Sequence record: PV469800.1
Length of the DNA: 64,000 nt
Reading direction: 5' to 3' (one strand)
Source: Escherichia phage HMD-P10
In this document: positions 54,283 through 56,542 of the stretch, one piece after another
How the letters are laid out: the number at the start of each line of letters is the position of its first letter
Position numbering within the stretch: the first letter of the stretch is position 1
The notes under the pieces: generated by a model
The model's database searches: none
What the model was told of the DNA's origin: nothing
Seen by the model: only the letters and a program-made list of their open reading frames with translations
Program-made: the position numbers and the translations under genes

Positions 54283-54831
54283 ATGAAGAAGTTGATTCTA
54301 GGTTTGTGCTTAATGTTTACAGCACACTTATCTTATGCAGTTGACTGCCCAGAGCTATCAATTAGTCAAAAAGTAAACATGTTAAAAGCTTACCAGTATG
54401 GTGAGAATAATATGGGTAAAGGTTGGGGTATCACTCTAGCTGCTATAGCCTTACAAGAGTCAGAATTAGGTCTGAATGTAGAGAATAAAAAGACACATGA
54501 TTATGGTATCTTCCAGAATCACTTGAAGACTGTTGTAAAGCGTAACAAAATCAGTCCTAATGTGGCTAAAAAGAAACTCTTAAAAGACTTTGACTATGCT
54601 GCAAAGGAAACACACAAAGAGCTTGAGTTTTGGACGAAGGTACATGGTCAACCAAAGTCAAAGAAGACTTTACAAAAAGTTTTAGCATCATATAATGCTG
54701 GGTATTCGTACAAAATCCCTAAAGCTAAGAAATACTCTCAAGATGTCTACAACAATATGAAAGTTATTGCTCAATGTGAATTTGCAACAAACATTTCTAA
54801 GGTGAATCATGAAAAAATTAAGAAAGTCTGA
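54283..54831 (+). CDS. lytic transglycosylase (SLT domain) with signal peptide
   Basis: 182 aa; N-terminal signal MKKLILGLCLMFTAHLSYA; catalytic-region motif AIALQESELG and later YNAGY. Confidence 0.55.
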   Translation: MKKLILGLCLMFTAHLSYAVDCPELSISQKVNMLKAYQYGENNMGKGWGITLAAIALQESELGLNVENKKTHDYGIFQNHLKTVVKRNKISPNVAKKKLLKDFDYAAKETHKELEFWTKVHGQPKSKKTLQKVLASYNAGYSYKIPKAKKYSQDVYNNMKVIAQCEFATNISKVNHEKIKKV

Positions 54832-55504
54832 TGAAGTCCTGTGCCATGCTTACGACCTACATCCTCATGAGTTAGGTCTTGATTCCTGTGTATGGACTCC
54901 AGAACAGTGCAGGGATTTTGAAGATACTGCAAGAGAAGTTGTATGTTCACTTGAAGAGTTCCACACGTCAGAAACAATTGTGAACGTTGTGGACAAAGAG
55001 ACTGGACAGTCTATAGGTGTAAGACGTGACAGTTTAGTCATAGTCAATAAAGACCTTGTAGAAAAAGGTAACCTTATCTTAGCAGACATTGATGGTGTTC
55101 TTACAAATTTTAATCACGAAGATTGCTCAACAGAATTGATTGATGGGTCATTTTCACAGTACACTAATTTGCTTGACTCTGTAAGAGCAAAACCAACGTA
55201 TGTTTTCAATATTATTGATGCAATTGCTAACCATGCTGCCATTGGACTCTTGACAGCGAGGGGTGAATCTCAGAGAATACCTACTGAGATGTTTTTAAGG
55301 CATTACATAGAGCATGATTACATGCTTTTCATGCGTGGTTTTGGAACTAACTCTATAAGTGCAGAAAGTTTGAAAGTCAGGATGATTCAGTCTTGCATTC
55401 TGCCTTACTTTAATATAGTATGTTTTATAGAAGATACAGAGAAGAATGTTCAGAAGGTAAACAGAATCCTTCCAAACATTAAAACCATGTTAGTTAAACA
55501 TTGA
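54809..55504 (+). CDS. HAD-superfamily hydrolase (putative phosphatase/nucleotidase)
   Basis: 231 aa; motif I LADIDGVL, motif II GLLTAR, motif IV-like FIEDTEKN. Confidence 0.45.
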   Translation: MKKLRKSDEVLCHAYDLHPHELGLDSCVWTPEQCRDFEDTAREVVCSLEEFHTSETIVNVVDKETGQSIGVRRDSLVIVNKDLVEKGNLILADIDGVLTNFNHEDCSTELIDGSFSQYTNLLDSVRAKPTYVFNIIDAIANHAAIGLLTARGESQRIPTEMFLRHYIEHDYMLFMRGFGTNSISAESLKVRMIQSCILPYFNIVCFIEDTEKNVQKVNRILPNIKTMLVKH

Positions 55505-55514
55505 GAGAAAATTT

Positions 55515-55979
55515 ATGAACAATATCATTACGGTAGCACTGGACGATACGGCAAACAAATCTGAAGTAGTTCGTAACATTATCAAAAGCAACTTTGAGGG
55601 TAAAATCTTCCGTGCTGTCAATGTAAAAGCAGACGGGAACATCCGGGAGTATCGTGCTCTTCTGAATGTTAAGAAACACGTCAAAGGCGCTGGTTCAACG
55701 ACTGCACACAAAGAAAACCTGATGACTATCTATGATATGGGTATGGCTTCAGAGTTAGGTGCTGAAGGTATCGTTAAAGAAGGTGCTCCGTATCGCTCTT
55801 TCAATCTGGAAACTGCTCTTATGCTTTCCTTTACAAGTGGTTCTAAAACAACTACTTATCTCTTTACTGATGCTGCAACGGTATCTGCTATCAAGGATAG
55901 CACCGTCAAAGCTGGGGTAGCTGCTGCTGCAAAAGCTTCTTCGATGGCTGCAAATGTCCTTGCTAAAGTCCTCGGTTAA
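55515..55979 (+). CDS. hypothetical protein
   Basis: 154 aa ORF, Ala-rich C-terminus; followed by terminator. Confidence 0.3.
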   Translation: MNNIITVALDDTANKSEVVRNIIKSNFEGKIFRAVNVKADGNIREYRALLNVKKHVKGAGSTTAHKENLMTIYDMGMASELGAEGIVKEGAPYRSFNLETALMLSFTSGSKTTTYLFTDAATVSAIKDSTVKAGVAAAAKASSMAANVLAKVLG

Positions 55980-55990
55980 GGTTAAGATAC

Positions 55991-56014
55991 AGGCTCCTTC
56001 GGGAGCCTTTTTCA
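55991..56014 (+). terminator. rho-independent terminator
   Basis: AGGCTCC-TTCG-GGAGCCT then TTTTC. Confidence 0.65.
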
Positions 56015-56031
56015 TTTCAGGAGATTGTTAA

Positions 56032-56379
56032 ATGACATTTAAAGAGTTCTGCCAAGCTACTTTCATAATTGTTTTCTTAGTTGGGGCAGGTGTCTGGGGA
56101 GGATACTCTTACAGAGATTATCAAGTTGCTGAAGCTGAGCTAAATAATGAGAAACTAATAAGTGTTGCTAAAGATGCTTATCAGGAAGGTTTAGCCACAC
56201 TCAGCACCAATTACAAAAATGATTTGAAAGATGTGCTTGCTAAGAATAAGCACACAAAAGAGGTACTAACATATGAAAAAACTAAGCCAGAGTTTTATAA
56301 TGTTTGTGTTACTGATAATTATGTCAGGGTGTTCAACGAACAAAGTGAACAGTACATTCAAAAACTCCCAAGTAAGTGA
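56032..56379 (+). CDS. i-spanin candidate (Rz-like)
   Basis: 115 aa; N-terminal TM (FIIVFLVGAGVWGGY) then coiled-coil periplasmic domain; overlapped by lipoprotein ORF. Confidence 0.45.
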   Translation: MTFKEFCQATFIIVFLVGAGVWGGYSYRDYQVAEAELNNEKLISVAKDAYQEGLATLSTNYKNDLKDVLAKNKHTKEVLTYEKTKPEFYNVCVTDNYVRVFNEQSEQYIQKLPSK

Positions 56380-56542
56380 GAGTGACAAGTACACTCAAGA
56401 AGAATCACGGTATATCATTAAAGGTAATACTGGCAGTGATGTGGCAGCAGCCCTTGAGTTTTATCGTGATGGTTTTTACCAGTGCACAATCAAAGCTAAT
56501 AACCTTATTGATATGATTTTATTAGGAAACAAACAGCAATGA
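56273..56542 (+). CDS. o-spanin candidate (Rz1-like lipoprotein)
   Basis: 89 aa; signal peptide with lipobox-like IMSGC; starts inside 3' end of i-spanin candidate in another frame. Confidence 0.45.
   Translation: MKKLSQSFIMFVLLIIMSGCSTNKVNSTFKNSQVSESDKYTQEESRYIIKGNTGSDVAAALEFYRDGFYQCTIKANNLIDMILLGNKQQ

Follow-up and report, generated by a model that had tools for sequence, protein, structure and literature searches.

In phages lambda and T4, the spanin pairs Rz/Rz1 and PseT.3/PseT.2 each consist of a type-II inner-membrane protein (i-spanin) and an outer-membrane lipoprotein (o-spanin) with periplasmic cysteines; their genes are embedded in lambda and separated in T4, where pseT is their neighbor and the holin and endolysin genes lie elsewhere. 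An overlapped layout is represented by phage Felix O1, whose p014, of 115 amino acids (aa), and p015, of 89 aa, are entered in SpaninDB (Kongari et al. 2018) among the overlapped pairs, with 107 nucleotides (nt) in common; wV8, Moogle, and Mushroom appear in the same list. T4 also encodes Vs.1, whose orthologues were reported to match the SLT domain marginally, with a role in lysis suggested (Nolan et al. 2006; PMC1524935), and beyond that study we found nothing in the literature on Vs.1 function. We analyzed a 64,000-nt stretch of Escherichia phage HMD-P10 (PV469800.1; this whole stretch is referred to as the window), in which an original prediction had placed a lysis-related cluster at 54283-56542 made up of a secreted SLT-type transglycosylase, a HAD-like hydrolase, and an overlapping spanin-like pair. 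All four open reading frames (ORFs) that it named were present where it had placed them. We hold with good, though not complete, confidence that they represent three functionally separate things within an accessory-gene block: a spanin pair, an exported Vs.1-family transglycosylase, and a Pnkp-type phosphatase. Their proximity reflects shared T4-like gene neighborhoods, not a lysis operon. Megablast placed the window in Felixounavirus, with ~95% identity to Escherichia phages HK3 and JohannRWettstein (Bas63); the window corresponds to Bas63 positions ~5,900 to ~69,800; its region 53000-58500 matched 275 phage records, all of them Ounavirinae and mostly Felixounavirus, with HK3 and Bas63 the best.

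The i-spanin gene (56032..56379, + strand) encodes 115 aa with a single N-terminal transmembrane domain (TMD) at residues 6-24 by hydropathy, as in a type-II inner-membrane protein, and the protein belongs to PHROG 1152 ('Rz-like spanin', E 8.9e-42). Its periplasmic domain of 88 aa is 65.9% helix according to the Felix O1 entry of SpaninDB; the N-terminal TMD that had been predicted was found, and the predicted coiled coil was not clearly supported in a domain that is mainly helical. Toward the C terminus lies the conserved motif EK-TKP-FYN-C-D-Y-FN, and the periplasmic Cys92 is invariant in an alignment of four lineages. The o-spanin gene (56273..56542, + strand) encodes 89 aa and begins with MKKLSQSFIMFVLLIIMSG followed by C20-S, in which residues 1-19 form a lipoprotein signal ending in the lipobox IMSG-C. 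The +2 residue, read from the sequence, is Ser, so there is no Lol-avoidance Asp and the protein reads as an outer-membrane lipoprotein. The lipobox-like IMSGC of the original prediction is therefore a lipobox, and both it and the signal are identical to those of the Mushroom o-spanin; the C-S-T that follows the cleavage position is invariant in five lineages, T4 PseT.2 included, and the homologue of phage Paul carries a LipoP SpII annotation. The mature part of 70 aa has no proline, and its Cys71 is conserved in four lineages. The o-spanin belongs to PHROG 4180 (E 3e-51); a weak match to PHROG 456 ('Rz-like spanin', 2.4e-4) we leave as a hint. Pfam and NCBIfam returned only noise for either spanin.

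The two genes share 107 nt, the o-spanin gene lying in the +1 frame, beginning inside the i-spanin gene and ending beyond it, so that of the 'embedded or overlapped' geometry originally proposed the overlapped form applies and the embedded form does not. Each gene has its own Shine-Dalgarno (SD) sequence (AGGAG and GAGGT, respectively), and the ORF after the o-spanin gene begins with an ATG that overlaps the o-spanin stop codon. Compared with Mooglevirus Mijalis, the overlap is 90.7% identical at the nt level, the i-only part 75.1%, and the o-only part 72.4%. The differences fall largely on the wobble position of whichever frame is read: 36 of 60 in the i-only part are at codon position 3 of the i-frame, and 30 of 45 in the o-only part are at codon position 3 of the o-frame. 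Such frame-specific wobble substitutions indicate that both frames are translated and constrained; on this substitution pattern, both are under purifying selection and the dual coding is not a chance reading. The overlap encodes the most conserved part of the i-spanin, the EK-TKP-FYN-C-D-Y-FN motif, beneath the substitution-tolerant signal peptide of the o-spanin. The same +1 overlapped layout is kept in Erwinia M7 (137 nt) and in the podovirus Kuravirus Paul (116 nt), where at ~30% identity the TMD, the lipobox-Cys-Ser-Thr, the i-spanin Cys92, and the o-spanin Cys71 are all retained. In HK3, we observed that the o-spanin (PP526765.1 11815-12012) is annotated from an internal GTG at codon 25 (window position 56345), 3' of the lipobox Cys; since that start lies downstream of the lipobox Cys, the deposited protein is without the signal peptide.

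From these features, we conclude that 56032-56542 is the phage's genuine two-component spanin, of the overlapped class, as the original prediction had proposed; TMD, lipobox, PHROG 1152 membership, SpaninDB, and frame-specific selection all agree. The pair is already known, being curated in SpaninDB and annotated in many GenBank relatives. Its closest counterparts, Felix O1 p014/p015 and the spanins of Salmonella phage Mushroom (the SpaninDB 'JH2' family), are near-identical in sequence and have the same lengths, overlap, and SD sequences; all share the lipobox (T/I)MSG-C and one periplasmic Cys per protein, and they differ from the window pair by a few substitutions only, with no difference in architecture or structure. 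Like Rz/Rz1 and PseT.3/PseT.2, the pair combines a type-II inner-membrane protein and an outer-membrane lipoprotein with periplasmic cysteines, and T4 PseT.2 shares the post-lipobox C-S-T with the window o-spanin. Unlike the lambda and T4 proteins, the window i-spanin is shorter and the o-spanin has no proline-rich region, and there is no significant sequence similarity to either system outside the signal peptide. BLASTP of the i-spanin against T4 PseT.2 and PseT.3 gave nothing, and that of the o-spanin matched in the signal peptide alone (E 0.036). We do not claim homology to the T4 spanins, as the BLASTP similarity is confined to the o-spanin signal peptide. With no proline in its 70 mature residues, the o-spanin is not in the sequence family of lambda Rz1, and it should function like Rz1 though outside that family. 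By the lambda/T4 paradigm, the i-spanin in the inner membrane and the o-spanin in the outer membrane would form a complex spanning the periplasm, with the single periplasmic Cys of each (Cys92 and Cys71) available for a predicted intermolecular disulfide. A holin and a lysozyme-type endolysin would first remove the peptidoglycan, after which the spanin complex would disrupt or fuse the outer membrane.

The rest of this pathway lies elsewhere. As originally predicted, no holin is adjacent to the cluster, and the candidates are the small membrane proteins at 17272..17837. The 123-aa ORF at 17466..17837 (+ strand), far from the cluster at the end of the tail-fiber operon, has one N-terminal TMD, at residues 11-29 by hydropathy, and a long polar C-terminal part. 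In Moogle, nataliec, and other relatives, the homologous ORF is labeled 'putative holin' or 'holin'; the family of the 123-aa protein, PHROG 4038, carries no functional label. This putative holin probably belongs to the same lysis pathway as the spanins. The neighboring 65-aa ORF (17272-17469; PHROG 402) has an amphipathic or hydrophobic N terminus and is translationally coupled to the putative holin gene downstream of it (ATGA overlap, 17466-17469); this ORF might encode a second holin or an antiholin component. Felix O1 has a PF00959 lysozyme, gp35, as its lysin and is described as having no holin-lysin cassettes. In Bas63, the endolysin is gene 0123, which lies ~6.6 kb beyond the end of the window, and tblastn with this endolysin found no match within the window.

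The gene that had been predicted to encode a HAD-like hydrolase (54809..55504, + strand; 231 aa) overlaps the SLT gene by 23 nt and is labeled 'polynucleotide kinase' in GenBank; its protein matches PHROG 3970, 415, and 505 ('polynucleotide kinase'). The DxDxT signature of HAD-type 3'-phosphatase domains is present as D93-I-D95-G-V, and D93-x-D95-G-V, T149-A-R151, K189, and E208-D209 are invariant in eight homologues. An AlphaFold2 model of the protein (predicted local distance difference test score 83.7) gave as its top Foldseek matches the phosphatase domain of T4 Pnkp (1ltq, 2ia5, and 5uj0; E 3e-7 to 3e-6), with a TM score normalized on the target of 0.73-0.75 (5uj0, the isolated T4 phosphatase domain) and ~155-165 aligned residues. 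The HAD-like part of the original prediction is thus supported by both motifs and fold. BLASTP against T4 PseT was not significant (E 0.1) and neither Pfam nor NCBIfam gave anything beyond noise, so the relationship to PseT is founded on the fold search and the motifs: like the C-terminal domain of T4 Pnkp (PseT), the protein has a HAD fold with DxDx(T/V), T/S-x-R, K, and E/D-D motifs. Unlike T4 Pnkp, it has no P-loop kinase domain (we found no Walker A or G-x4-G-K-[ST] motif in the protein) and has instead an N-terminal domain of ~85 aa. Because there is no kinase P-loop, the GenBank label is a misnomer. Taken together, motifs and model identify this as a predicted Pnkp-type polynucleotide 3'-phosphatase, which would act in nucleic-acid end healing and is unrelated to lysis. 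The domain that stands in place of the T4 kinase domain (residues 1-85; 54809-55063) is conserved and beta-rich, with H13-A-Y15, W29, D36-F-x-D-T-A-R42, C46, and F51-H52 invariant, and no fold or family match could be assigned to it.

The SLT-like ORF (54283..54831, + strand) encodes 182 aa and is preceded by an AGGAG SD sequence. Its N terminus reads MKK, then ILGLCLMFTA, then HLSYA-VD, with a hydrophobic core of 10-11 residues, Ser at -3, and Ala at -1; by hydropathy and the -3/-1 rule, residues 1-19 (54283-54339) form a signal peptide with predicted cleavage at SYA-VD. Two other interpretations of this segment were rejected: a lipoprotein signal (LGLC, residues 6-9), in which Leu at -1 does not fit a lipobox, and a signal-anchor-release (SAR) anchor, which the short h-region and the S-x-A site make doubtful. 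The motifs of family-1 lytic transglycosylases (PF01464/GH23) are present as E59-S60, G75-I-F-Q78, S136-Y-N-A-G140, and Y151, and the signal peptide plus catalytic motif of the original prediction were in this way borne out. In a 59-member alignment of the diverse Vs.1 family, Glu59, Tyr137, and Tyr151 are invariant and Ser60, Gly63, Gly75, Trp117, Asn138, and Gly140 nearly so. A Cys pair, Cys22/Cys165 in the window protein, is present in 28 members of this alignment, absent in 29, and incomplete in 2; such covariation fits a disulfide in an oxidizing compartment, and a Cys22-Cys165 disulfide is likely in the SLT protein. The protein has the goose-lysozyme/SLT fold, with phiKZ gp144 and phi29 gp13 among its fold matches. 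Single-sequence phmmer against the PDB found no match for either the SLT or the HAD protein, matches being obtained only via the family profile or predicted structures.

The protein belongs to PHROG 600 (E 5.7e-58, aligned over 1-170 of 182 aa), the family of T4 Vs.1, and tblastn matched it to vs.1 of T4 and RB59 at 32% identity (E 6e-10), covering 85% of its length in T4. In T4, the homologous ORF lies between regB and vs and is vs.1, an identity confirmed by the RB59 annotation. The window protein and T4 Vs.1 are alike in being ~180 aa long, with an N-terminal signal peptide and ES, GxFQ, SYNxG, and Y motifs; the Cys22-Cys165 pair is found in the Ounavirinae proteins and is absent from T4 Vs.1, and the neighbors differ, being rIIB and the Pnkp-like gene in the window and regB and vs in T4. 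Homologues occur in 2,135 phage records by tblastn, from T4-like Straboviridae, Ackermannviridae, and Ounavirinae to Vibrio and Aeromonas phages, and an exhaustive HMMER search of the Vs.1 family gave 266 representative clusters at E <=0.001. A hydrophobic segment lies within the first 25 residues in 142 of 167 family sequences, several of the others being evident N-terminal fragments. The best solved sequence relative of the family profile is EtgA (E 1.8e-5), a 'specialised' transglycosylase of the type III secretion system (T3SS). While collecting these sequences, we observed that the Vs.1-like gene is labeled 'endoribonuclease' or 'RegB' in MN850587.1 (10756-11301; mistaenkt) and in Aeromonas phage TSW001 (2483-2992 of our locus L017); a label of this type probably slipped from regB, the T4 neighbor of vs.1. 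We also observed a Vs.1-like SLT gene at 6001-6582 of contig ACBEZJ010000004.1 (214,766 bp; GCA_053226485.1), which is labeled Campylobacter coli. A PF25677 chimallin (phiKZ nucleus-shell) gene at 8019-9953 lies two genes away on that contig, which for this reason looks like a nucleus-forming jumbo phage.

From its motifs and homology, the best reading of the SLT protein is that of an exported transglycosylase-fold protein with a periplasmic role. Small, Sec-exported, probably disulfide-bonded, and catalytically intact as judged by its motifs, this Vs.1-family member would most likely perform accessory, low-level or locally acting murein cleavage in the periplasm, resembling EtgA-like specialized enzymes, and its activity may be restrained or localized like that of the secretion-system enzymes. 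These enzymes (EtgA of the enteropathogenic Escherichia coli T3SS and the IagB, IpgF, and VirB1 type) are ~19-22% identical to it; unlike them, the window protein is phage-encoded and comes without an associated secretion apparatus or a known activating partner. Roles as the lysis endolysin or as a virion enzyme are unlikely, and of the export/periplasmic or virion role that had been offered for this protein the periplasmic half fits and the virion half does not.

The resemblance to EtgA could be taken further, with the Vs.1-type protein as a partner-dependent specialized enzyme that opens or conditions the sacculus locally, as EtgA does with the T3SS rod protein EscI, in the service of an envelope-spanning assembly such as the spanin complex, which it might thread or activate, or of rII-linked or lysis-inhibition wall conditioning. 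We regard this as improbable: no partner was identified, the neighborhoods are not conserved outside close relatives, our literature search turned up nothing on Vs.1 function, and the similarity to EtgA is modest. Were it true, a partner-activated Vs.1 transglycosylase, in >2,000 genomes of large virulent phages, would be a previously unrecognized step in lysis or envelope control.

Another possibility, which we consider quite improbable, is the original one, that the genes form one lysis module in which the SLT protein, exported by the Sec route, would act as a holin-independent or second endolysin directly with the adjacent spanins. Other phages have Sec-exported endolysins, for example Lys44 of fOg44, and here the catalytic residues are intact, some records label the gene 'putative lysin', and it lies 1.2 kb 5' of the spanins and beside rIIB in Felixounavirus, Mooglevirus, and Kolesnikvirus. 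Against this, the protein matches neither a holin-released nor a SAR endolysin, having a short h-region with an S-Y-A site and no adjacent holin, and a separate soluble lysozyme-type endolysin exists. The SLT protein is a member of the T4 Vs.1 family and not an unusual endolysin. A Pnkp-type phosphatase, an unrelated ORF, and a hairpin with a T-run separate the gene from the spanins. Its homologues lack lysis-gene neighbors in T4-like, Ackermannviridae, Vibrio, and Aeromonas phages; when we inspected the Ackermannviridae, Vibrio, Acinetobacter, and Aeromonas phages, no lysis neighbor was conserved and a macro-domain gene was the sole recurrent one. Kuravirus Paul has the same spanin family, and a search of the first 40 kb of its genome (79 kb in total), a portion that includes the spanin region and the holin-endolysin pair, detected no Vs.1-like gene. 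Finally, T4 e mutants do not lyse despite an intact vs.1, which indicates that the Vs.1 family does not replace an endolysin. That the protein is a virion-associated enzyme piercing the wall at infection is hardly credible: virion transglycosylases are common in phages (T7 gp16), and phiKZ gp144 and phi29 gp13 are among the fold matches, but a cleavable-type Sec signal peptide is found family-wide and would export the protein away from cytoplasmic assembly, the gene lies outside the structural module and beside rIIB, and the proteome of Felix O1 virions, in which no product is numbered below gp23, did not include it.

Returning to the reading of three separate functions, several points weigh against it. 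On the spanin side, there is no clear coiled coil in the i-spanin (none is given for Felix O1 in SpaninDB, and a crude estimate of heptad a/d occupancy came to 0.5), and the o-spanin, besides its lack of proline, has no significant similarity to lambda Rz1 or T4 PseT.2 beyond the signal peptide. Spanin function in Felix O1-like phages is predicted from architecture and family membership. On the transglycosylase side, Pfam SLT scored 18.6 bits against a cutoff of 21.3, below the gathering threshold, although 40 of the 59 relatives match Pfam SLT at E<0.01 (best 8e-12); the Foldseek E values were weak (0.02-0.2); and signal cleavage as opposed to SAR-type anchoring was judged solely by the S-x-A site and the shortness of the h-region. 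In every member of the Ounavirinae that we examined, the SLT gene adjoins rIIB and is no more than 1.2 kb from the spanins, which leaves some room for a link to lysis.

The arrangement of putative transcription signals and neighbors separates the parts. A GC-rich hairpin with a T-run, found by consensus scan on the + strand at 54199..54216, resembles an intrinsic terminator 3' of rIIB, and a terminator at the same place was annotated in Mijalis by CPT. Between this hairpin and the SLT gene, there is a TATAAT hexamer (54246-54251) that may serve as a promoter element; scanning the sequence directly 5' of the SLT gene for promoters gave only this lone hexamer, with no good match to a -35/-10 pair. 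A second hairpin (55991..56008, + strand), terminator- or attenuator-like, has a perfect stem of 7 bp (AGGCTCC-TTCG-GGAGCCT) and a T-run, with the SD sequence (AGGAG) and ATG of the i-spanin gene immediately 3'. Since the SD sequence follows at once, there is no room for a promoter. The same layout of terminator, ribosome-binding site (RBS), and i-spanin gene was annotated by CPT in Mijalis and Kuravirus Paul. Just 5' of this second hairpin is a conserved 154-aa ORF (55515..55979, + strand; PHROG 2267) whose equivalent occupies the same position in Mijalis and Erwinia M7; it had no match in Pfam, NCBIfam (noise only), or the PDB, and we saw neither a membrane nor a lysis signature in it. With the phosphatase gene and this ORF intervening, hairpins at 54199-54216 and 55991-56008, and a T4-like neighborhood, this is not a lysis operon; the 'lysis-related cluster' of the original prediction is therefore supported for the spanins and not supported as one functional lysis unit.

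That neighborhood extends on both sides. Upstream are rIIA (50635-53001) and rIIB (53081-54187), and downstream of the spanins are four small ORFs (56539-57538) and a macro-domain protein (57539-58324) homologous to T4 Tk.4 (34% identity, E 1e-23). From Felixounavirus to Kolesnikvirus, the order is kept as SLT, phosphatase, 154-aa ORF, zero to three genes, spanins, zero to five small ORFs, and macro gene. In Erwinia M7 and Kuravirus Paul, the macro gene is directly 3' of the homologous spanins, and in Paul these genes are distant from the holin-endolysin pair, which is located after the tail spike. T4 has counterparts of the rIIA/rIIB, Vs.1-like, PseT-phosphatase-like, and Tk.4-like macro genes of the block; there, vs.1 is two genes away from tk.4 and the spanin genes pseT.3/pseT.2 adjoin pseT. 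The block is best read as a T4-like accessory-gene set that comprises rIIA, rIIB, and the Vs.1-like, PseT-phosphatase-like, and Tk.4-like macro genes and encloses the spanins.

We made several further observations in the window and its relatives. The macro-domain protein at 57539-58324 is DarG-like in NCBIfam (E 1.5e-12) and is annotated 'putative phosphatase'; it may be a counter-defense gene reversing ADP-ribosylation. In Aeromonas phage TSW001, the macro gene directly follows the Vs.1-like gene. A 58-aa ORF just 5' of rIIA (50430-50606; PHROG 3931), annotated 'putative membrane protein' in Bas63, combines an N-terminal TMD with a zinc-ribbon-like CxxC...CxxC motif in its C-terminal part. 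The + strand carries four perfect GC hairpins (37696-37713, 41803-41818, 49724-49741, and 55991-56008) that have TTCG/TACG-type tetraloops and T-runs, each with an RBS and ATG within ~15-25 nt 3' and no room for a promoter. This suggests a recurrent terminator-then-gene design, in which attenuation, read-through, or RNA-end stabilization would operate within long transcripts.

None of the components described here is new, each having been annotated or described before in relatives or in databases, and the analysis bears on how they are labeled and understood. The 'polynucleotide kinase' should be renamed as a phosphatase lacking a kinase domain, the HK3 o-spanin is annotated from too late a start, and the names 'putative lysin', 'endoribonuclease', and 'RegB' given to the Vs.1-like gene are incorrect or have no support. 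The SLT ORF corresponds in Felix O1 to T4 vs.1, a gene whose likeness to SLT was pointed out two decades ago. For the biology of this phage group, the picture is one of dispersed lysis genes: the holin gene follows the tail fibers, the spanin genes sit inside the T4-like accessory block, and the endolysin gene has yet another location.

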